This document shows positions 3,958 through 59,853 of a DNA stretch of 64,000 nt, one piece after another. Within the stretch, counting starts at the first letter, position 1. Each line of letters starts with the position of its first letter. The notes below the pieces were generated by a model. It saw nothing but the letters and a program-made list of their open reading frames with translations. It ran no database searches and had not been told where the DNA came from. Source of the stretch: an uncultured bacterium (lineage in GTDB: Bacteria; Planctomycetota; SZUA-567; JAKLDR01); contig CALGYR010000006.1 of the NCBI GenBank assembly GCA_937935355.1, positions 5,608 to 69,607 of the forward strand, read 5' to 3'. The translations under genes and the position numbers were made by a program.

Positions 3958-5190
3958 ATGATCGTGAGAAGTCTGCCGATGCTTCCGGCTCTGTTGCTCG
4001 TTGGCCTCGTGGGCGCGCTCGCGGCAGAGCCCCCGGCCAAGGGCCCTCTGGCCGACCGGCCCTCGAAGCCGGGGCCGCACCTCGAGAAGGTGAAGGCCCT
4101 CGGCGACAACGCCTGGGTGAACCTGGGCAAGCCCGCGCCCGACCCCAAGTACGGCCCGGCCCAGGGGCGCTCATGGAGCCGCAAGATGGCCTTTGCGCCG
4201 GACCTGCGCGGGGCCTTCATCTACGGCGAGGGCGTCCACGGCGGCGCCTCGACGCGCGGCGGGAAGCGCTTCTACAACGACGACCTCTTCTTCTACGACA
4301 TCAACGCCAACGCCTGGGTCTGCTGCCATCCGGGCACGCCGCTGGACGACCCGGGGCTGACCTACGACAAGGAGCTCGGCTGCGAGAGGGATAAGAACGG
4401 GGACATCATCCCGGTGGCGGTCAGCGTCCACGCCTACTGGACGCCGGACTACGACACCGACCGGAAGATGTTCACGATGATGCCCTCGCCGGCCTCGCTC
4501 TACTGGCGCAAGGAGCTCGAGAAGTTCCGCCCCTATTTCAAGGAGAAGGGCAACTCCGACCCGCGCTGGGGCGGCTACGGCAGCCCCTGGTACTGGGACC
4601 CGCGCACCGGCAAGTGGGAGTTCCGGCGCGTCAAGGGCCCGGCCCCGGTCTGCAACGTGGACAACGTCTACTTCTACTCGCGCAAGCTCAAGAAGGGCGT
4701 GAACCTCTTCCGCGGCGTCTGGCTCTACGACCACGCGGAGAACTCCTGGAAGAAGGTGAACGAGGCCGGCGGCGGCAACGGGGCCTACTGCTATGATCCC
4801 AAACGCGAGTGGATCTACGCGGTCGGCGCCGACCGCAACGACGGCGGGAGGAACAAGCTCTCGGTCCTGGACATCGCCAGCGGAAAGTGGACGAAGATCG
4901 AGGCCGAGGGCGACGCCGGCACCGGAATGGAGTCGAATCAGGCCTTCTTCGCCTACGACTCGGTCAACGACGTCGTGGTCTTCCACATCCATGACCGGCA
5001 CCACATCTACGTTCCGGACGCGAGGAAGTGGACCGTGCTGCCCTCGACGCTCCCCGAGAAGGTGCGCTGGGTCTCCGGCAGCGGCTTCTACGACCCGGAG
5101 ACCAACGCCCACTTCTACTTCAACGCCGGCGACAGCAACATCGGCCCCGGCAACATGTGGGCCTGGCGGTACGCCGGCGGCGGGCGCTGA
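3958..5190 (+). CDS. Secreted Kelch-like beta-propeller protein (paralog family member 1)
   Basis: ATG 3958 with RBS GGGAGGACGAAG; signal peptide 'MIVRSLPMLPALLLVGLVGALAA'. Family-specific N-terminal motif 'GPHLEKVKALGDNAWVNLGKPAPDPKYG' and C-terminal 'NAGDSNIGPGNMWAWRY' shared with the paralogs at 36361, 37811 and other paralogs. The supplied ORF 2629..5190 has a spurious 443-aa Arg/Gly-rich N-extension. Confidence 0.8.
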   Translation: MIVRSLPMLPALLLVGLVGALAAEPPAKGPLADRPSKPGPHLEKVKALGDNAWVNLGKPAPDPKYGPAQGRSWSRKMAFAPDLRGAFIYGEGVHGGASTRGGKRFYNDDLFFYDINANAWVCCHPGTPLDDPGLTYDKELGCERDKNGDIIPVAVSVHAYWTPDYDTDRKMFTMMPSPASLYWRKELEKFRPYFKEKGNSDPRWGGYGSPWYWDPRTGKWEFRRVKGPAPVCNVDNVYFYSRKLKKGVNLFRGVWLYDHAENSWKKVNEAGGGNGAYCYDPKREWIYAVGADRNDGGRNKLSVLDIASGKWTKIEAEGDAGTGMESNQAFFAYDSVNDVVVFHIHDRHHIYVPDARKWTVLPSTLPEKVRWVSGSGFYDPETNAHFYFNAGDSNIGPGNMWAWRYAGGGR

Positions 5191-9349: not shown

Positions 9350-10096
9350 TCAGCCCGGGGCCTGTCCGTCGGCCGGCCGGCGGTACCAGAAGCCGCAGCA
9401 GCGCCGCGACATGAGCGCCAGCGGGCACAGCAGCAGCACGCCCTGGGACAGGATCACCCGCGCCGTGGAGTGCCAGCGCAACTTGCGGCTGGAGGTCACC
9501 ACCGGGTGCGCGGTGACCACCCGGAACTCGAGGCCGTGCCTGCGGCCCCAGAGCCGCAGCGAGCGCGAGAAGGCCAGCTCCTCGGCGGCGAAGAGCCTCT
9601 GGCTGAAACCGCCGACCGCCTCGAAGCCCTCGCGCAGGCAGTAGACGAAGGCCCCGGCGGCCAGTCCGCGCAGGACCATCAGCCGGTTGAAGAGGCGCAC
9701 GAAGGAGCGCACCCAGCGCCGGGGATAGGCGTCGAGCTCGACGACCGCGCCGCCGCCCGCGCAGCGGCCGGACTCCAGGTTGGCGAGCGCCGCGGCCAGG
9801 AGCCCGGGGCTCACCGCCGTGTCGGCGTCGACGAAGACCAGGTGCCGGCCGGCGGCGGCACGCGCCCCGGCGTTGCGGGCCCGCGATATCTGGTTGACCG
9901 GCTCGAAGACCACCCGGGCCCCGAGCCCCCGGGCGACCTCCGCCGTGCGGTCGTTCGAGTTGTTGTCGACGACGATGAGCTCGCCCGGCCGGCCGGAGCG
10001 TTCCATGGCGCGCTGCAGGAGAGGCAGGTTGCGTGCCAGTTCCACCTCCTCGTTGAAGGCGGGCACGATCACCGAGTAGGCAAGGGAGTCGCTCAC
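9350..10096 (-). CDS. Family 2 glycosyltransferase
   Basis: 'YSVIVPAFNEE...LIVVDNNSNDRTAEVAR...VFVDADT' GT2 DxD-type signature. GTG start at compl. 10094-10096 preceded by AGGAG; the ORF track starts it 25 codons earlier, at 10171. Confidence 0.75.
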   Translation of the reverse strand: MSDSLAYSVIVPAFNEEVELARNLPLLQRAMERSGRPGELIVVDNNSNDRTAEVARGLGARVVFEPVNQISRARNAGARAAAGRHLVFVDADTAVSPGLLAAALANLESGRCAGGGAVVELDAYPRRWVRSFVRLFNRLMVLRGLAAGAFVYCLREGFEAVGGFSQRLFAAEELAFSRSLRLWGRRHGLEFRVVTAHPVVTSSRKLRWHSTARVILSQGVLLLCPLALMSRRCCGFWYRRPADGQAPG

Positions 10097-10169
10097 GGTT
10101 GGCTCCTGGAGGCGAGGGCCCGGCCGGAGCCGGGCGTGCGGACATTGTAGGCTGGGAAGCGACCACTGC

Positions 10170-10355
10170 AAGCCTGCCGCCCTTCGCGCGGGGCCGTTTC
10201 AAGAAGACGGTTTTTTTGCCGCGGAGAAGCGGAGGCACAGAGCAGGCTCGGGAACGCGGCGGACAGCTCCTGCAGTGAAGAGCCCCGGCCGCGGACACGA
10301 TCCTGTCTCGGCGCCTCCGCGCCTCGGCGGTGAGCATCGGTTCCTGAAATGGCCC
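10170..10355 (+). ncRNA. Conserved non-coding element, copy A (terminator-like hairpin + ~140-nt conserved block)
   Basis: CCGTTTCaagaaGACGG followed by TTTTTTT (10187-10210), then 'GCCGCGGAGAAGCGGAGGCACAGAG...CCGCGGACACGATCCTGTCTCGGCGCCTCCGCGCCTCGGCGGTGAGCATCGGTTCCTG'. Function unknown; copy B is at 46205-46360. Confidence 0.3.
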
Positions 10356-10375
10356 TGACCCGGCTCATCGCATCC

Positions 10376-10403
10376 TTGACAGTCCGGCCCTCCGGCATAC
10401 AAT
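10376..10403 (+). promoter_or_regulatory. Near-consensus sigma-70 promoter for rpsJ (TTGACA-16-TACAAT)
   Basis: TTGACA at 10376-10381 and TACAAT at 10398-10403 with a 16-nt spacer, ~75 nt upstream of the rpsJ ATG. Confidence 0.5.
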
Positions 10404-10476
10404 ACCCCCCGCGACGCCCGAAGACGGTCTGCGGGCGCAGAAGCAACCCAAAGAGGTAGGTTCGTTCGGAGGCATC

Positions 10477-10785
10477 ATGGCGCAGAATCGGATTCGCATT
10501 CGCATGGAGGCGTACGACCACAAGCTGCTGGACCAGTCCGCCCAGACGATCGTCGAGGCGGCCAAGCGCACCGGCGCGCAGATCCACGGGCCCATCCCGC
10601 TGCCCACCAAGATCGAGCGCTACACCGTGCTGAGGAGTCCCCTGGCCGACAAGAAGAGCCGGGAGCAGTTCGAGATCCGCACGCACAAGCGCATCCTGGA
10701 CATCAGCGAGCCCAACGCCAAGACCATCGGCGCCCTGGGCAAGCTCACCGTCCCGGTCGGCGTGGACATCCGCATCAAGGCGTAG
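10477..10785 (+). CDS. rpsJ: 30S ribosomal protein S10
   Basis: '[76 protein letters not shown]' is near-identical in pattern to bacterial S10. RBS GGAGG upstream. It is not followed by rplC. Confidence 0.95.
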
Positions 10786-10821
10786 CCGGTCGTACCCAGG
10801 TCCCTTCAGGAGGGTCGAGAC

Positions 10822-10911
10822 ATGTGCGGAAGCTGCGGCTGCAAGCCCAGGAAGAAGGCGGCCAAAAAGGCCGTCAAGAAGACCGCCAAGAAGGGCAAAA
10901 AGAAGAAGTAA
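10822..10911 (+). CDS. Candidate 29-aa Cys-x2-Cys-x-Cys / poly-Lys peptide (MCGSCGCKPRKKAAKKAVKKTAKKGKKKK)
   Basis: ATG 10822 is 7 nt after AGGAGG (10809-10814). GC3 is ~90% in this frame versus clearly lower in the overlapping 67-aa track ORF 10824..11027. No homolog recalled. Confidence 0.35.
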   Translation: MCGSCGCKPRKKAAKKAVKKTAKKGKKKK

Positions 10912-10993
10912 CAGCCCGACGCGGTCGGCAAACTGCGTTCAGGCGCGGTCTCATCCCCCGGGTGAGGCCGCGCTGTCTTAGGAGCCCAGATTG

Positions 10994-11086
10994 GCCACAG
11001 ATGCACACAGATAAACGCAGATCTTGAGCCTGGGATTGAGGCCGTCTGTCGGCCCCAATCTGTGTGCATCTGTGTTCATCTGTGGC
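10994..11086. repeat. CACAGATG decamer-repeat locus 1 (inverted pair of 10-bp-phased direct repeats) abutting the LarA-like RBS
   Basis: 10994-11023 GCCACAGATGCACACAGATAAACGCAGATC; 11058-11086 ATCTGTGTGCATCTGTGTTCATCTGTGGC in opposite orientation. Confidence 0.6.
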
Positions 11087-11102
11087 TACCAGGAGAGATG
11101 CC

Positions 11103-12332
11103 ATGGTTGATGCCGCCCCGATGAAGCCGCTCACCGAGGAACAGGTCCGCGCCGCGCTCGAGAAGGGCCTGCGGCCCGAGCAGTTCGCCGGCAAGACCGT
11201 CCTGGTGGTCATCCCCGACTCGACCCGCACCGCGCCGGTGGCGCAGTTCTACCGGCTGCTCTGCGAGATGGTCGGCCCGCGCGCGAAGAAGCTCGACTTC
11301 CTGGTGGCCCTGGGCACGCACATGGCCATGTCCGAGGAGGCCATCATGAAGCTGGTCGGGGCCACCCGCGAGCAGCTCGCGCGGCACCCGGTCTTCAACC
11401 ACGAGTTCCGGGACCCCAAGGAGCTCGTGCAGGTCGGCACCTTCAGCAACGCGGACGTCGAGGAGATCTCCGGCGGGCTGATGAGCTGCTCGGTGCCGGT
11501 GGAGGTCAACCGCCGGGTCAACGAGTACGACCAGCTCGTCCTGGTCGGCCCGGTCTTCCCCCACGAGGTGGTCGGCTTCTCCGGCGGCAACAAGTACCTC
11601 TTCCCGGGCATCGCCGGCGCCCGGATCATCGACATGTTCCACTGGCTGGGCGCGCTGATCACCAACGTCTGCATCATCGGCACGGCCGAGACCCCCGTCC
11701 GGAAGGTCGTGGAGCGCGCCGCGGCGATGGTCAAGACCCCCAAGCTCGCCTGCTGCATGGTGGTCGACCACGGCGAGCTCGTCGGCCTGGAGGTCGACGA
11801 GCCCTACGCGGCCTGGAAGCGCGCCGCGGAGCTGAGCGACCGGCTGCACATCGTCTACCACGAGAAGCCGTACAAGAGCGTGCTCTCCTGCGCACCGCAC
11901 ATGTACGACGACATCTGGACGGCCGGCAAGTGCATGTACAAGCTCGAGCCGGTGGTGGCCGACGGCGGCGAGCTCATCATCTACGCCCCGCACGTCACCG
12001 AGATCAGCTACACCCACGGGAAGGTCATCGACGAGGTCGGCTACCACTGCCGCGACTTCTTCGCCAGGCAGTGGGACAAGTACAGCCGGTACCCGTGGGG
12101 GGTGCTGGCCCACTCGACGCACGTCAAGGGCGCCGGGATGTTCGATGGCGGCCAGGAATGCCCGCGCGTGAACGTGGTGCTGGCCACCGCCATCCCCGAG
12201 GAGCGCTGCCGGAAGGTCAACCTCGGCTACCGCGATCCGAAGTCCATCGACCCCAAGCAGTGGATGAACCGCGAGGCCGAGGGCTACCTCTACGTCCAGA
12301 AGGCCGGGGAGATGCTCTACCGGCTGAAGTAG
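11103..12332 (+). CDS. LarA-like (lactate racemase family, DUF2088) protein
   Basis: 'LVVIPDSTRTAP', 'ALGTHMAM' and 'FPHEVVGFSGGNKYLFPGI' resemble the LarA N-terminal domain and nickel-pincer site region. ATG 11103 is preceded by AGGAGA; the track start 11064 lies inside a repeat. Confidence 0.75.
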   Translation: MVDAAPMKPLTEEQVRAALEKGLRPEQFAGKTVLVVIPDSTRTAPVAQFYRLLCEMVGPRAKKLDFLVALGTHMAMSEEAIMKLVGATREQLARHPVFNHEFRDPKELVQVGTFSNADVEEISGGLMSCSVPVEVNRRVNEYDQLVLVGPVFPHEVVGFSGGNKYLFPGIAGARIIDMFHWLGALITNVCIIGTAETPVRKVVERAAAMVKTPKLACCMVVDHGELVGLEVDEPYAAWKRAAELSDRLHIVYHEKPYKSVLSCAPHMYDDIWTAGKCMYKLEPVVADGGELIIYAPHVTEISYTHGKVIDEVGYHCRDFFARQWDKYSRYPWGVLAHSTHVKGAGMFDGGQECPRVNVVLATAIPEERCRKVNLGYRDPKSIDPKQWMNREAEGYLYVQKAGEMLYRLK

Positions 12333-12507: not shown

Positions 12508-14871
12508 TCACGGGTTCGATGCCATCCAGGCCGCCTTGTCGCCGGGCTGGATCTCGCCGGTGACTCGAACCAGTTCCGCCATGGCGCTGTTCGGCTGGAC
12601 GCCGACCACTCTGGCGGTGGCGATCTTGTTGCCGGCGCGCTCGATCTCGAACTCGAAGCCGGTCTTCACGCCCTGCTCGAAGCCGGCGTCGAGAATCGCC
12701 TTGCCGTCCGGGACGAGGTCGGCCACCGCGCAGGTGATGCCCTTGCCCGCCGCCGCCCCGCCTTTGTCGTCACGCGCAGGATCTGGCTTGTAGAGCCACA
12801 CCTTGCTGCCCGCCCACATGGTTACGCCGTACTCCGGGATGAACGTTACCACCTCGAACTTGACATTGACATCGTCGGTGATCGGCCGGTACTCGTCCAT
12901 TTTGCTGTCGAACTCCACCAGCCGTTTCCCCGAGTGGAACAGGTAGCGGCCCGAGAGCGGGTCCACCGTCAGAGAGTCGTTCCGGATGGTCAGACTGTCC
13001 GTAGACGGGAAATCCTTCATCTTCCTGAACTTGCCGTCCTTGTCTATTACGGCGACGGCGTGCGAGTCGTTCCCGCCGGCGAAGAGCACCTCCTGGCGGA
13101 AAGGATTGTGCCGGGCCAGGCTGTGGTAGCCGTGAACGGGGAACTTCCCCAGATTCTGCCAGGCCTTTTTCTCCTCGCTGTACGCCGAGAGACCTTCGCC
13201 CCTCTCCAGGGAGAGAAGGCAGTCCATGGCCGAGAAGTATTCCCAGGTCATGCCGCCGCCGCCGCTGGGAACATTGGACCACTTGCCGGTGCGGATGTCG
13301 TAGCACGCGCCGCTGGTGAAGAAACGGCTTCTCTCGGAGTCCAGGGAGTTTTGCGAGTACTGATGGCCGAACTTCTGCAGAATCGCCGGCGCGTTCGGCT
13401 CCCCATCGAAGGGGATGTTCCGCCAGGCGTTCTTCTCCTCGGAGTAGGCCACCAGCTTGCGCGACTGGCGCACCCCGAAGTACAGGCACTGCCCCGTATG
13501 GCTGTCCCAGTGGGCGTCGTCCGACCAGGTCGCGATGCTCAGCCCCTTGGAGGGGCCGACCTTGGGGGCGCCCCAAAGCCCCGCGGGCATCTCGGTCTTG
13601 AGCTCGGCCCAGTCGCCGGGCTTCATCGAGGCGGCCAGCTTGGAAAGCTCGGTCTTGCCGCGCCGGGCCTCCGACGCCTTCCTGGCGGCCTCGTTACCGG
13701 GAATCCAGGCGCCGCCGCCGGGCTGGGCCGATCCCGCCTGTGACGCCGGTTGAGCCACTACGCGGAACCGCGTCGCAGCCCTGTCGCCGACCTGGACTTG
13801 GCCCGTGGCGCTGACCAACTCGGCGATGGCGGTCTTGGGCTCGACGGCGGTGACTCTGACTATGCCGACCTTCTGGCCATCGCGATCGACGTCCAGCTCG
13901 AAGTCCGGCCTGAGTCCCTGGTCCGCGCCGGCCGAGAGTTCCACCCTGCCGCCGCCAAGCAGGGCGGTCACCCGGCACTCGAGGACATCGTCTTTCGCCG
14001 CCGTCCCGACCTTTTGGATCGTGGATTCGGCCGCCAGAAGTCTGGTCGCCAACGCCCCGCCCCCGCCGACGACGGCCAACACCGCCGCGCAGACGGCTGC
14101 CGCCACCTTGATCTTCGTCCAGAACATCATCCTCAGCACTCCTTCCGCCAATTGCACGGGCACGGCATACTGTGCCCCCGCGATCCCTGCCGCCCCCGTC
14201 GCGACGCCGGTCGCCGCGAGCTTCGAGGTCGCCAGGATGGATGGAAGGAGCGCGGCGGGCATCGCTGCGCCGGCCTCGGCGTCGAGGACTGCGATGAGCC
14301 CCGCAGCCGAAAGCACCGCACCGTGCTGCGCCAGCCGCTCGCGCAGGCGGTCCAGGCCGATCTGCGCCCGGCGGGCCAGTGTCCCCTGCGGGCAGCCCGC
14401 CAACCGCGCGGCCTCCTCCTGGGAATGGCCCTCGAGGTAGCGGAGGAGCACCGCCTGGCGCTGGGCGGACGGCAGGGCGTCGATCTCGCGGTCGAGCATG
14501 GCCAACGCCTCGTTCCTGCCCGACTCGCCTCCCGCCTCCCGCCCCCCGTCCCCGCCCTGCACCGGCCTGATCATGGCCGCCTCCTCTTCGTGCCGGATGC
14601 GGCGGGCACGGCTCCGGACAGCCATGCGCCCAACGTTGCCGGCCACTCCGTGGAGCCATCCTGCCAGGCTCGCCACTGGGCGGAACGCACGGGGCTCTCT
14701 GGCCAGGGCCAGGAAGACGGCCTGCGTGGCCTCCTCGGCGTCGTGTCCGTTGCCGAGCAGGCGCAGGCAGGTCCGGTAGACCATCCGGCTGTGGCGGGAG
14801 ACGAGCTCGGCGAAGGCCGCCTCGCTCCCGCCGGACGCGTAGTCCGCCAGCAGTTCCTGGTCCGTACGCAT
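12508..14871 (-). CDS. ECF sigma-70 factor fused to a transmembrane helix and an extracytoplasmic Kelch-like beta-propeller flanked by two copies of a ~65-aa domain
   Basis: N-terminus 'MRTDQELLADYASGGSEAAFAELVSRHSRMVYRTCLRLL...QAVFLALAREP' (sigma-70 region 2) and '...LPSAQRQAVLLRYLEGHSQEEAARLAGCPQGTLARRAQIGLDRLRERL' (region 4). Then TM 'IKVAAAVCAAVLAVVGGGGAL', then a propeller ('...GVTMWAGSKVWLYKPD'), in one uninterrupted 788-799-aa frame. Start is uncertain: ATG 14871 chosen; TTG 14907 and ATG 14901 are alternatives. Confidence 0.75.
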   Translation of the reverse strand: MRTDQELLADYASGGSEAAFAELVSRHSRMVYRTCLRLLGNGHDAEEATQAVFLALAREPRAFRPVASLAGWLHGVAGNVGRMAVRSRARRIRHEEEAAMIRPVQGGDGGREAGGESGRNEALAMLDREIDALPSAQRQAVLLRYLEGHSQEEAARLAGCPQGTLARRAQIGLDRLRERLAQHGAVLSAAGLIAVLDAEAGAAMPAALLPSILATSKLAATGVATGAAGIAGAQYAVPVQLAEGVLRMMFWTKIKVAAAVCAAVLAVVGGGGALATRLLAAESTIQKVGTAAKDDVLECRVTALLGGGRVELSAGADQGLRPDFELDVDRDGQKVGIVRVTAVEPKTAIAELVSATGQVQVGDRAATRFRVVAQPASQAGSAQPGGGAWIPGNEAARKASEARRGKTELSKLAASMKPGDWAELKTEMPAGLWGAPKVGPSKGLSIATWSDDAHWDSHTGQCLYFGVRQSRKLVAYSEEKNAWRNIPFDGEPNAPAILQKFGHQYSQNSLDSERSRFFTSGACYDIRTGKWSNVPSGGGGMTWEYFSAMDCLLSLERGEGLSAYSEEKKAWQNLGKFPVHGYHSLARHNPFRQEVLFAGGNDSHAVAVIDKDGKFRKMKDFPSTDSLTIRNDSLTVDPLSGRYLFHSGKRLVEFDSKMDEYRPITDDVNVKFEVVTFIPEYGVTMWAGSKVWLYKPDPARDDKGGAAAGKGITCAVADLVPDGKAILDAGFEQGVKTGFEFEIERAGNKIATARVVGVQPNSAMAELVRVTGEIQPGDKAAWMASNP

Positions 14872-14994
14872 GGCCACAAAGTTACCCACCGCTCCCTCCA
14901 TCCGCAATGAAGTTGCCGGAGGGGGAGGCCGTGTTCAACGAAAGGCGGCGAATCCTGGAACCGCAACGGCCACGGACCATGCCGGGGAGACACC

Positions 14995-41473: not shown

Positions 41474-41712
41474 GTCACTTTCAGCACACTGCGAAATACA
41501 CCGGACTGAGCTCGGAGTTGTCGAAATTCCTTGAAACTCGCCGGCGGCAGTTCCACTAACCGAGCTGTTGAATCACACTTAGACAGTGCATATCAAGCAA
41601 TTGGCGCTTCCCATTGGCGCGGAGCCGGTGTATTCTGCCCCAGTCGTCTCCGCAGCTGCACACAGATGTGCAATCTGCGCGACGGGGATGAGTTGAGGAA
41701 CTGGAGACAACC

Positions 41713-52240: not shown

Positions 52241-54285
52241 TGGGGCTCCAGCCGGGATTCGGGGGTTGGGGACTGGGGGCCAGGGGCAGGCGACGAGGTG
52301 GAGGGCGCGGCCTCTTCCGTTCCCGTTCCCCGCCCCTCGTCCCCCGCCCCCGGCATCACGGGCAGCAACTCCCGGAAGGCCGACGAGCCCCACACCGGGG
52401 CCGGCGGCATGGACACGGGATCCCGGCTCGGCGCGGCCACGACCGGCGAGGGCAGTTCGTCCCAGCCCTCGGGCTTGCGTCCGATGGGAATCCAGAGGAT
52501 GCGCACGCGCCTGGCCTGCGCGCGCCGCTCGTAGCCGAAGAGGCCGCCGAGGATGCGGAAGCGCCTGGCGCTCTCCCCCGCGGTCTGGCGGGTCTCCCCG
52601 GGCGGAGGGGCGGCCGCCGGGCCGCCCGTCGAGCCGCGCCGCGAGTAGTCGAATAGCGGGAAGAAGCGCACGTTCCTGCCCTCCGGCGTGCGCACGTGCT
52701 TGAAGAGGTTGAAGAGCGCGTGGTCGCGCAGCGTGCCGTCGGCGAAGCACTCGTGGCGGTAGAGCGTGAAGAATGGGCCGTAGACCCGGTCGAAGGCCAG
52801 CCGGTTGCGGAACCACCAGGGCTCCAGGGTCGTGAAGAACCTCTCGCCGCTCGGCCCGCGGTCATAGCGGAAGAGCGGCCAGAAGAGCGCGTTCACGTCG
52901 CTCCTCATGTCCCCGGGGTCGATCGGGCGTTCGGCGCGGCCGGGCGGCTCCGGATAGGCGCCGGGTTCCCGGATGGCCGCGAGCCTCCGGCGCTCGGGGG
53001 GCAGCGGCGGCAGGACCCGCACCCGCCGCCCGTCGAGCGTCTTCTCCACCCACTCCCGGCGCACGTAGCGGAAAACGAACGCCGAGGTCACCGTGGTCAC
53101 GCGCATGGGCGGCTCGTCGCCCGTCTCCCGGATGTAGAACGGCCAGAGCACCTGGCGACTCTCCCCGTAGGCGCCCACCCGGTGGCCGTAGAACGGGAAG
53201 ATCTTGAAGCCGTGGACGCTCTCTCCCGTGATCCAGGATACGAAGGGCCATGGCGCGTGCCACTCGACGAACTCGTTGTTCTTGTGCCAGGCGTGCTTGC
53301 GGCCGAAGAGCGGCCAGAGCACGCTGTAGTAACTGATCTGGTCGCCACGGTAGCTCATCCAGAACGGGAAGAAGACCCAGGTCTCGGAGGGGTGCGGCGT
53401 GTCCAGGGCCAGCTGCCAGTGGTGGAAGAAGGGCCAGAGCGCGAAGACCCGGCGGTAGCGCCCGTCGCGCGCGTCGATCCCGTAGAGCGGCCAGACCCGC
53501 CAGCCGCGAACGTCGGGTCCGCGCCACACGCCGAAGACCGGCCAGAGCACGTTCCACGAATGGTAGAACTCGCTCTGGTAGTCCACCCATAGCGGGAAGG
53601 CCGCGAAGCGGATCCACCTGGTCCCGAGCTTGCCCTTGAGCAGTCCGGCGACCGGGAAGACCGCGAAGTAACTCCCGCGGGCGGTGTCGGAGCCGCCCCA
53701 CAGCACGGGCATGACCGCCCAGTCGGTCTTCGCGGCCGGCTCTCCGCCGGAGCGGTCGACGCGCTTGTCCCACCAGACGATCGGGAAGACGTGCAGGCGG
53801 TTCGACTCGCCGTTGCGCGTGGCCCACACGATGGGCCAGAGCGCGCGGAAGTCCCAGCGGATCGAGCCCGGGCCCTCGTCCTCGAGATAGCCGAGCGGTC
53901 GGACGATGGTCACGCGGTTGCCCGGCTGCGACCACCCCGTGGCCAGGGGCAGCAGCGCCCCCCAGTCGAGCCGGCCGGCGGGCGTCTCCTGCCAGAAGAA
54001 GAACGGCCCGGATCCCTCGCTGAGCCCCCGGGCAGCCGCGGCCTGTGCCGCCTCTTCGGCCGGTGGCGCCGGGCGGAGGGCCGCGGCCCGGAGCGGCTCG
54101 TTGCGCTCCGGAACCTTCGGCCGGCCGCATCCCGCAACGGACGCCAGCAGCAAGCCACAGATGCACACAGATGCACACAGATGCCGAATACCGCCTGGAA
54201 CGACCGGAGACCGGCTCCGCCTGCTCCGGCCATCTTCGCAAATCCGGAACCCGGAACCCGGAACCCGGAACATCCCGTTATTCAT
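52237..54285 (-). CDS. Lipoprotein with ~20 short aromatic 'WP(L/F/I)(F/Y/W)' repeats (682 aa), translationally coupled to the MlaF-like ATPase
   Basis: ATG 54285 overlaps the ATPase stop (ATGAATAA). Lipobox 'LLLASVAGC'. Repeats 'FPIVWW', 'MPVLWG', 'WPVFGVW', 'WPLYG', 'WPFFHHW', 'FPFWMSY', 'WPLFGRK', 'WPFVSW', 'FPFYGH', 'WPFYIRE', 'FWPLFRYD'. The 5' end contains (CCGGAAC)x4 and CACAGATGCA x3 repeats. Confidence 0.6.
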   Translation of the reverse strand: MNNGMFRVPGSGFRICEDGRSRRSRSPVVPGGIRHLCASVCICGLLLASVAGCGRPKVPERNEPLRAAALRPAPPAEEAAQAAAARGLSEGSGPFFFWQETPAGRLDWGALLPLATGWSQPGNRVTIVRPLGYLEDEGPGSIRWDFRALWPIVWATRNGESNRLHVFPIVWWDKRVDRSGGEPAAKTDWAVMPVLWGGSDTARGSYFAVFPVAGLLKGKLGTRWIRFAAFPLWVDYQSEFYHSWNVLWPVFGVWRGPDVRGWRVWPLYGIDARDGRYRRVFALWPFFHHWQLALDTPHPSETWVFFPFWMSYRGDQISYYSVLWPLFGRKHAWHKNNEFVEWHAPWPFVSWITGESVHGFKIFPFYGHRVGAYGESRQVLWPFYIRETGDEPPMRVTTVTSAFVFRYVRREWVEKTLDGRRVRVLPPLPPERRRLAAIREPGAYPEPPGRAERPIDPGDMRSDVNALFWPLFRYDRGPSGERFFTTLEPWWFRNRLAFDRVYGPFFTLYRHECFADGTLRDHALFNLFKHVRTPEGRNVRFFPLFDYSRRGSTGGPAAAPPPGETRQTAGESARRFRILGGLFGYERRAQARRVRILWIPIGRKPEGWDELPSPVVAAPSRDPVSMPPAPVWGSSAFRELLPVMPGAGDEGRGTGTEEAAPSTSSPAPGPQSPTPESRLEPQ
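54154..54185. repeat. CACAGATG decamer-repeat locus 3 (GCCACAGATGCACACAGATGCACACAGATGCC)
   Basis: Three exact 10-bp-phased copies; lies within codons ~34-43 of the lipoprotein gene. Confidence 0.6.
54244..54271. repeat. (CCGGAAC)x4 heptanucleotide tandem repeat inside the 5' end of the lipoprotein CDS
   Basis: ccggaac|ccggaac|ccggaac|ccggaac exact; encodes 'FRVPGSGFR' (codons 6-14 on the minus strand). Confidence 0.7.
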
Positions 54286-59440: not shown

Positions 59441-59824
59441 CCTTCTTCAGTGTGCCCCCTGCACGCTGCGCCCGGGGCTAAGCAACGGCGGGGCCAAAGA
59501 CGGGGTGGACGGCTGCCTGCGCTAAGGCGCCCAAATGCGCCACTTGTCAATACGCGGGCATCTTCCCGGGCGGCTCATGTCCTGATGTGGATTCCCACAC
59601 CAGCCGACGTTCGTCGGGGACAACAACGGTTTGGGGGGAAGCTATCAGCCGCGGATGAACGCCGACAAACGCGGACGGGCTCTTCACCGCAGAGGACGCT
59701 GAGGCGCGCAGAGGACGGCCATTGCCTGCATGAGCCGGAGCGCGGCGGAGTACGTTGCGTATTCGAAAGCCCCAGCCGCGAACCGGAGGACGCCTCCGCG
59801 CCCCCTCTGGTGGAATCCTCGTAT

Positions 59825-59853
59825 CCGTGTCCATCTGTGTCCATCTGTGGCTG
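59825..59853. repeat. CACAGATG decamer-repeat locus 4 (CCGTGTCCATCTGTGTCCATCTGTGGCTG) ~130 nt upstream of tyrS
   Basis: Reverse complement GCCACAGATGGACACAGATGGACAC; same motif family. Confidence 0.55.

Follow-up and report, generated by a model that had tools for sequence, protein, structure and literature searches.

A 29-codon gene encoding a HypB-like MCxxCGC head and a poly-lysine tail travels with a LarA-like gene in a Planctomycetota lineage

Hpn and Hpn-like of Helicobacter are small nickel-storage proteins, rich in His and Gln, that hold several Ni ions per chain, and bS22, bL37, Thx, and eL41 are tiny polybasic proteins of the ribosome or associated with it. Nickel supply to enzymes other than hydrogenase and urease, including the nickel-pincer (LarA) superfamily, is poorly understood. 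HypB carries a "highly conserved CxxCGC" motif that binds Ni(II) with an affinity in the picomolar range, in a complex that is diamagnetic and square-planar, the ligands being the N-terminal amine and Cys2, Cys5, and Cys7, and short peptide maquettes of this motif bind both Ni(II) and Zn(II) (PMC12284835). GntE2 (PDB entry 4NAR) is a LarA homologue that was compared structurally in the study defining the nickel-dependent LarA superfamily (PMC7583248). Here we describe a 29-codon open reading frame (ORF), referred to as the micro-ORF, whose predicted product joins a HypB-type CxxCGC head to a poly-Lys tail. It is found between rpsJ and a LarA-like gene in a 64-kb stretch of DNA from an uncultured planctomycete (contig CALGYR010000006.1); the whole of this stretch is called the window. 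The locus comprises the following features.

10376 to 10403, + strand: sigma-70-type promoter TTGACA-16-TACAAT (11/12 matches), which drives rpsJ and, in this genome, the micro-ORF too
10477 to 10785, + strand: stand-alone rpsJ (ribosomal protein uS10), 102 aa, TAG stop; Pfam PF00338 Ribosomal_S10, E 4e-35
10808 to 10813, + strand: Shine-Dalgarno (SD) sequence AGGAGG, 8 nt ahead of the micro-ORF ATG
10822 to 10911, + strand: micro-protein gene, 29 codons, MCGSCGCKPRKKAAKKAVKKTAKKGKKKK; head MCGSCGC (predicted HypB-type CxxCGC N-terminal metal site) and poly-Lys tail with a (KKxx)n period
10945 to 10971, + strand: 12-bp G+C-rich hairpin, then GCUGUCUU; weak terminator or attenuator (predicted fold)
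10994 to 11086, no strand assigned: inserted dispersed palindromic repeat of 10-bp (C/A)ACAGATG units, outside the conserved operon and absent from all relatives
11103 to 12332, + strand: LarA-superfamily (GntE2-like) predicted nickel-pincer-nucleotide enzyme; Lar_N PF09861, E 6e-28

The micro-ORF begins 36 nt after the TAG of rpsJ, and no promoter or terminator was found between the two in the window. A first-pass annotation of this DNA had picked it out by its translation signals, which held up on inspection: AGGAGG stands upstream, and the G+C content at third codon positions (GC3) is 0.90 in the micro-ORF frame and 0.32 and 0.50 in the remaining two frames, with values of 0.94 to 0.98 in the neighbouring genes. 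Lys accounts for 13 of the 29 codons, and the C-terminal end is KKKK. The head motif, written at the DNA level as ATGTGYNNNNNNTGYGGNTGY, has a single occurrence in the window, where shuffled sequences predict 0.00. The annotation had also suspected a missed small protein; the gene does seem to be a genuine small protein gene, but it was not missed, since an unnamed 29-aa product without a family is already present in the gene calls of public assemblies carrying the contig (DAIPLX010000027.1, GCA_036768975.1). A phmmer search with a 30-aa version of the micro-protein against 1.84 billion representatives gave no matches, and the exact micro-protein sequence was absent from the protein collection in which it was looked up. 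A protein search with a 40-aa in-frame extension of the micro-ORF matched P0001 alone, a head-less relative. No riboswitch or other known RNA was found in the window.

Every relative that retains the rpsJ/LarA-like block keeps the micro-ORF. Its absence from orthologous rpsJ loci, the outcome that the first-pass annotation had set against its own proposal, is not what the comparison returned: the micro-ORF and its SD were found in all five related lineages with the block, in one of them as a fusion to the LarA-like gene. The separate peptides encoded between rpsJ and the LarA-like gene are as follows.

L223: MCGTCGCRKKKAKKKSAKKKTAKKKKVAKKKK
L225 and L226: (M)MCTKCGCGTSRKKTAKKKTAKKKVARKKK
L090: MCTNCGCRTKKKSAKKKPAKKKVAKKKK
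L089: MCDKCGCLTLKKTVRKKVAKKKPAAAKTASRKK

An SD-like sequence stands immediately 5' of the micro-ORF ATG in L089, L090, L223, and L225. These four and L226 have a genomic G+C content of 52 to 69% and LarA-like proteins that are 70 to 76% identical to that of the window. When the whole spacer was aligned, 12 of the 16 invariant columns fell in the head, ATGTG..A..TG.GG.TG, and the remaining spacer was barely alignable. The MCxxCGC head is invariant, and its Cys and Gly codons show synonymous changes only (TGC/TGT; GGC/GGT/GGA). In L224 there is no separate micro-ORF at the locus; instead, the LarA-like protein P0131 (3001 to 4251, 416 aa) has MCSNCGC as its N terminus and begins MCSNCGCASENQ / MCSNCGCASENQSAAALTEDQ. 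P0131 is the only such head fusion among the 120 LarA-like homologues listed.

The placement of promoters points the same way. A promoter-like site (TTGAAG/TTGCAA/TTGAAC, 16 to 17 nt, TATATT/TATTAT) lies between rpsJ and the micro-ORF in four of the five relatives, and none was found between the micro-ORF and the LarA-like gene in any of the five or in the window. The hairpin that follows the micro-ORF occupies the same place in L223, L225, and L090, and paired changes in the window preserve it (GGTCTCA...TGAGGCC against GGTCCCG...CGGGACC); the fold z-score for 10905 to 11102 is -6.9. Together, the promoter placement and the conserved hairpin suggest that the ancestral unit consisted of promoter, micro-ORF, hairpin, and LarA-like gene. 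The spacer of ~100 nt that holds the micro-ORF promoter in four of the five relatives is missing from the window, so that here the micro-ORF rides on the transcript from the strong rpsJ promoter. Beyond the clade, 597 kb of rpsJ and LarA loci yielded one head match, and it was chance-like. We conclude that the micro-ORF goes with the LarA-like gene rather than with rpsJ, and, from the pattern of conservation, that it is evidently a real gene, under selection, linked in an operon to the LarA-like gene and fused to it in one relative.

The micro-ORF shares its reading frame with rpsJ, and 12 sense codons follow the TAG (window 10786 to 10821), so a readthrough fusion of S10 and the micro-protein was considered. 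The shared frame is found in L223 as well, but not in L225; the relation is thus a coincidence rather than programmed readthrough, and the fusion was rejected.

Residues 1 to 7 of the window micro-protein, MCGSCGC, set a CxxCGC motif at Cys2. The earlier idea that the Cys triad could bind metal is strengthened by this, the head being the motif with which HypB binds Ni(II) at high affinity. The initiator Met can normally be removed when Cys stands at position 2, and the required N-terminal amine would then be exposed. Micro-protein and HypB N-terminal extension have Met1-Cys2-x-(Thr/Ser)-Cys5-Gly6-Cys7 at the same position, both are disordered, and the only database similarity is to HypB_prefix_1/2: the sole NCBIfam match of the window peptide was HypB_prefix_1 (NF053667; 13.7 bits, E 0.12, below the cutoff of 30), and HypB_prefix_1/2 was the only best match for 8 of the 10 members of the wider family (described below) that were tested (E 6e-4 to 0.1; 14 to 21 bits; all under the NCBIfam cutoffs). 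Unlike HypB, the micro-protein has neither a GTPase domain (CobW/HypB/UreG-type) nor a His-rich stretch. At 29 aa it has no Pfam match, whereas a genuine HypB with the same head (L110, 237 aa) matches PF02492; across the family the whole protein measures 13 to 60 aa and includes a poly-Lys tail, and its gene stands alone without a hyp neighbourhood (one HypA among the 159 neighbours listed). Hpn and Hpn-like resemble the micro-protein in being very small and cytoplasmic and in the task proposed for them, that of holding nickel on behalf of the enzymes that need it; the micro-protein differs in having one site of three Cys and an amine, no His, and a polycationic tail, and has no sequence relation to them.

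The same MCxxCGC head was found at the N terminus of proteins of other kinds: besides the HypB of L110, a protein with a NifU-like Fe-S carrier domain (L192, 88 aa) and an oxidoreductase with an FAD-binding domain (L119, at least 113 aa), itself not shown to bind metal. With the LarA-like P0131, these cases suggest that the head behaves as a portable N-terminal module whose carriers include a nickel chaperone, an Fe-S carrier, and a nickel-pincer enzyme.

The tail also occurs without the head. A head-less 22-aa ORF, MPAKKKAKKAVKKTAKKGKKKK, was found at 5057 to 5125 of L084 (and in L085 to L088), with its own promoter-like site, the SD AAAGGAGG, and a terminator. Over its last 16 residues it matches the tail of the window micro-ORF exactly, although the codons differ synonymously.

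Because proteins this small are missing from the big protein collections, the wider distribution of the micro-protein was followed with a degenerate DNA pattern, ATGTGYNNNNNNTGYGGNTGY-N(3-15)-AARAAR-N(3-12)-AARAAR. It matched at least 120 stretches in metagenome contigs and at least 120 in IMG/VR viral contigs; a composition-matched control, the complement pattern, gave 0 in the viral contigs. Most of the matches listed are ORFs of 13 to 60 aa with an SD and a poly-Lys tail. The metagenome loci listed contain 130 head-bearing ORFs, 104 of them short and Lys/Arg-rich, which reduce to 97 distinct peptides (median length, 22 aa). An SD-like 4-mer stands upstream of 86 of these 97; their tails are 50% Lys, and 64 end with three Lys or Arg. 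The search pattern set no constraint on position 4; 81 of the 97 have Thr or Ser there, and so does E. coli HypB (CTTCGC). The window micro-protein has the head pattern and likewise the length (~13 to 60 aa), the ~50% Lys tail ending in a Lys run, and the SD that mark the proposed family. In 14 independent close pairs, substitutions numbered 24, 21, and 65 at codon positions 1, 2, and 3, and the ORFs had diverged by 12%, against ~53% in their flanks (an ungapped comparison, in which the flanks are effectively unalignable). The metagenome loci listed span 27 to 70% G+C, and archaeal loci are among the matches listed, such as L132, with an archaeal RNase P. Internal pattern matches in HemN-like proteins were judged from sequence to be false positives.

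A census of neighbours among the matches listed, covering 81 downstream and 78 upstream ORFs, found no Pfam family more than twice; HypA was present once and LarA not at all. The downstream neighbour is co-oriented in just 47 of the 81. With no recurrent neighbour family, the micro-ORF appears in general to be a stand-alone gene. A general association with LarA or with nickel genes was rejected, as it was not found outside the clade. No known RNA elements were found beside the micro-ORFs in the 60 metagenome loci scanned. No family in Pfam, NCBIfam, or PHROGs covers the micro-proteins, Pfam and PHROG searches gave nothing meaningful, and the large protein collections searched returned no family members under 30 aa. 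A tblastn search with one phage-type paralogue against cultured phages found no match, and literature searches on the motif strings and on micro-proteins with a Cys head and a Lys tail turned up nothing relevant beyond the work on HypB. The family appears large and widespread in bacteria, archaea, and phages, and its probable metal-binding motif, itself known, comes in an architecture and with a distribution that we did not find described.

Three kinds of locus stood out beside these. Phage contigs (IMG/VR L227 to L346, e.g., L229 7111 to 7415 and L248 4945 to 5434; metagenome L111, L129, L164, and L185) carry tandem arrays of two to four paralogues of 42 to 85 aa. All of these start MCxxCGC, are Lys-rich, and overlap at TAATG junctions; an EF-hand-like DxDKDGKLEGSDF loop is present in some and an extra Cys-rich block (CGCGCKPGKPAAGCKCKCATC) in others, and the arrays lie near ORFs that resemble phage tail-sheath genes, with no PHROG family. 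In three of the 60 scanned loci, the micro-ORF has a tRNA gene directly 5' of it and on its own strand (L104 2826 to 3003, - strand; L137 6807 to 6960, - strand; L186 1437 to 1679, + strand). L104 has the order S10 gene, tRNA, micro-ORF; its S10, 31% identical to that of the window, is taken to be archaeal-type, and its micro-protein (MCGSCGCTENKKKKKK) has a head identical to the window's. An S10 gene also lies within ~1.4 kb of the micro-ORF of L158. The proximity of tRNA and S10 genes may be chance, or may hint at a link with translation. Finally, L107, L130, L190, and L213 contain short ORFs with the same head and acidic, Glu-rich tails, e.g., MCDTCGCGEKEEKEEKEENEE; since the search pattern favoured Lys tails, such relatives may be under-counted.

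The LarA-like gene downstream of the window micro-ORF encodes a member of the LarA superfamily, having a Lar_N domain and aligned His, His, Lys, and His at the nickel-pincer-binding and catalytic positions. The closest PDB entry is 4NAR, which it matches over its full length (E 6e-73), and its GTH, PHE..GFSGGNK, and FHW segments align with Mar2 and GntE2. We take the conserved positions to correspond to His108, His174, Lys184, and His200 of L. plantarum LarA. The protein thus shares with the LarA superfamily and GntE2 the Lar_N domain, full-length similarity, and these His and Lys positions, but it scores under every NCBIfam equivalog cutoff (lactate, malate, and hexonate enzymes); the best match was NF052594, "nickel-dependent putative hexonate epimerase," at 169.5 bits against a cutoff of 500. 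In the limited literature covered, we found no description of a LarA operon with a CxxCGC peptide or of an N-terminal CxxCGC extension. In L090 and L223 to L226, the LarA-like gene is followed by two conserved genes of ~392 and 420 aa without Pfam matches and in several of these by a DUF1570 gene; L089 shows just one such Pfam-less ORF, of 394 aa. The spans downstream are as follows.

L223: 4406 to 6858
L225: 4348 to 6797
L090: 3917 to 6363
L089: 6902 to 8086

These downstream genes may be further members of the ancestral operon; no homologues of them were found in the window. Convergent to the window LarA-like gene is a gene for an extracytoplasmic function (ECF)-type sigma factor (12508 to 14907, - strand), whose first ~190 aa contain regions 2 and 4 and which has a C-terminal extension of ~600 aa.

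The low-G+C repeat between the micro-ORF hairpin and the LarA-like gene is an insertion of ~100 nt in which two arrays of 10-bp-periodic (C/A)ACAGATG(C/A/G)A units form a long inverted repeat, or hairpin. The window contains 9 matches to the unit pattern, where 0.03 would be expected, and further copies lie at 54155 to 54182 (+), 59823 to 59850 (-), and 41650 to 41667 (+). The repeat looks like a repetitive extragenic palindromic (REP)- or miniature inverted-repeat transposable element (MITE)-like element, or else a regulator-binding array.

Upstream, the window S10 scores above the bacterial equivalog cutoffs (NF001861, 150.1 bits, cutoff 85; TIGR01049, 144.4 bits, cutoff 72.75). The consensus promoter reported ahead of rpsJ was confirmed: TTGACA-16-TACAAT, with 11 of 12 matches, is the sole such site in 10000 to 11300, where shuffled sequences lead one to expect 0.1, and TTGACA-16-TA(C/G)AAT is common to all six loci of the clade. 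It was also correct that rplC does not follow rpsJ and that the next large gene on the + strand is LarA-like: the micro-ORF and then the LarA-like gene (Lar_N, 11103 to 12332) come directly 3', and no homologues of rplC (L3), rplD (L4), or rplB (L2) were found across the 64-kb window. The idea that the locus reflects a peculiarity of rpsJ did not survive comparison. In most of the 80 genomes examined whose S10 is 63 to 74% identical to that of the window (mainly Planctomycetota, Acidobacteriota, and Proteobacteria), rplC comes next after rpsJ, and in no looked-up relative with an S10 identity of at least 79% does rplC follow. The closer relatives are arranged as follows.

L089, L090, and L223 to L226 (S10 identity 89 to 92%): rpsJ, then micro-ORF and/or LarA-like gene
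L092 (82%): rpsJ alone
L217 (80%): MTHFR, rpsJ, glycosyltransferase
L214 (79%): rpsL-rpsG-fusA-rpsJ, then DUF29

A detached rpsJ is thus ordinary for this group of Planctomycetota. The separation of rpsJ from rplC is a lineage trait, and the link of the micro-ORF to rpsJ is incidental. The possibility that the window gene encodes an S10 paralogue was rejected, as it passes the equivalog cutoffs and as the same detached layout and the same promoter recur across the clade; a second rpsJ may nonetheless lie elsewhere in the genome.

Our best reading, in which we place about even confidence, is that the window micro-ORF is a real translated gene for a free-standing, polycationic micro-protein with an N-terminal metal-binding site, probably for Ni, that would serve as a nickel buffer or donor in a LarA-like operon. 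We infer the metal binding, the preference for Ni rather than Zn, the role of the tail, and the service to the LarA-like enzyme. The invariant M-C-x-(T/S)-C-G-C module of the mature micro-protein would bind one metal ion, most likely Ni(II), and the disordered polycationic KKxx tail would retain the peptide on polyanions (RNA, DNA, polyphosphate, or acidic lipids) or on an acidic partner. In the Planctomycetota lineage, the micro-ORF is the first cistron of an operon with the GntE2-like LarA-superfamily gene next, and the micro-protein would buffer or donate nickel for a nickel enzyme or the assembly of its cofactor; the operon with a nickel-pincer enzyme and the head fusion in one relative suggest this role. 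More tentatively, and in our judgment with somewhat less than even likelihood, the MCx(T/S)CGC poly-Lys peptides at large may make up an unrecognised class of micro-proteins with a very wide distribution across bacteria, DPANN-type archaea, and phages. They would be metallochaperones or metal buffers that stand free and are tethered electrostatically, the HypB nickel "hook" having become a gene of its own that can be re-fused to LarA-like, NifU-like, and HypB proteins.

Several observations weigh against the nickel buffer or donor role. To our knowledge, the established nickel-pincer pathway (LarB, LarC, and LarE) requires no such peptide. The micro-ORF and the LarA-like gene need not occur together: no micro-ORF lies upstream of the closest LarA-like homologue (81%, L220) or of one at 64% (L347). 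Outside the clade there is no detectable link to nickel genes (one HypA among the 159 neighbours listed), and no LarA homologue was found in the 120 metagenome loci listed. The poly-Lys tail may carry a function of its own, given the head-less ORF with an identical tail. Lastly, peptide models of CxxCGC also bind Zn(II), so the motif does not fix nickel specificity (PMC12284835).

The main rival to the nickel buffer or donor, which we consider unlikely, is a ribosome- or nucleic-acid-associated polybasic micro-protein, comparable to bS22, bL37, Thx, or H1-like nucleoid proteins with AKKA repeats, in which the Lys tail does the work and the Cys head provides a Zn site that is structural, or else a cross-link that depends on metal or redox state, as in protamines. 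Like bS22, bL37, Thx, and eL41, the micro-protein falls within 20 to 35 aa, has over 40% Lys/Arg, and has strong translation signals, and the window gene is co-transcribed with a ribosomal gene, with 36 nt and neither promoter nor terminator between them. The KKxx period of the tail, the head-less stand-alone ORF with strong signals and the identical 16-aa tail, the tRNA genes directly upstream in L104, L137, and L186, the archaeal-type S10 nearby in L104 and L158, and the phage copies that adjoin structural genes would all suit such a protein. Those polybasic proteins lack a Cys head, however, no similarity or family match to them was found, and the linkage to rpsJ is not conserved: a promoter-like site separates the two genes in four of the five relatives, rpsJ loci outside the clade have no micro-ORF, and ribosomal and nucleoid families are not enriched among the 159 neighbours listed. 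Moreover, strict invariance lies in the head and not in the tail, and it is the head, without the tail, that the LarA-like, HypB, and NifU-like fusions carry. It is likewise improbable, in our estimation, that the head serves another metal or cofactor (Zn, Cu(I), or Fe-S) or buffers redox state through its thiols, the product being a micro-protein of a general metallothionein-like or stress type and the LarA-like synteny having been inherited without functional meaning. The Zn(II) binding of CxxCGC models, the lack of a conserved nickel-related neighbour among the 159 listed, the head on a NifU-like Fe-S carrier, and the LarA-like homologues of L220 and L347 without a micro-ORF would be explained, but the in-frame fusion of the head to the LarA-like P0131, the survival of the micro-ORF/LarA-like pair through the rearrangement of both flanks, and the exact HypB spacing, including Gly6 and Thr/Ser4, argue against it.

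The first-pass annotation had offered a translated regulatory leader as the other option. On this account the peptide itself is functionless; the hairpin, and through it expression of the LarA-like gene, would be controlled by ribosomes that stall in the Lys-rich tract, or by a sensing of metal or of Lys-tRNA. The layout recalls classical attenuator leader peptides, with a short ORF rich in codons for one amino acid (13 Lys in 29), then a conserved hairpin with a short T-containing tract just before a structural gene that has no separate promoter. Set against those leaders, the micro-protein sequence itself appears selected, the head amino acids being conserved through synonymous changes, and can be fused to an enzyme; it often has no co-oriented downstream gene (47 of the 81 listed are co-oriented), no neighbour family recurs, and the same type of micro-ORF stands alone in ~100 unrelated contexts and in tandem paralogue arrays in phages. 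With 33 nt between the stop codon and its start, the hairpin is, by its coordinates, probably too distant to be masked by a terminating ribosome, and no antiterminator pairing alternative to it was identified. A leader is therefore a weak proposal, and we regard it as very unlikely. That the micro-ORF is a chance ORF in an intergenic spacer we consider barely credible: it has only 29 codons, no protein-database match, and a low-complexity tail, but the SD and the GC3 of 0.90, the conservation across genomes of 52 to 69% G+C, the at least 120 viral matches against 0 in the control scan, and the third-position substitution bias speak otherwise, and this reading is already contradicted by the comparative data.

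The peptide (CGSCGCKPRKKAAKKAVKKTAKKGKKKK, with a free N terminus) is short enough to be synthesised, so the central claim, that of tight Ni or Zn binding, can be quickly tested. A gene-sized copy of the picomolar nickel site of HypB, in a LarA-type operon and fused in one relative, would offer a candidate nickel donor or buffer that can be tested directly. The micro-proteins exemplify functional small genes that standard annotation leaves unnamed. If the proposed role is true, they would represent a missing component of nickel (or zinc) trafficking that, being encoded by genes of fewer than 30 codons, is invisible to annotation pipelines.

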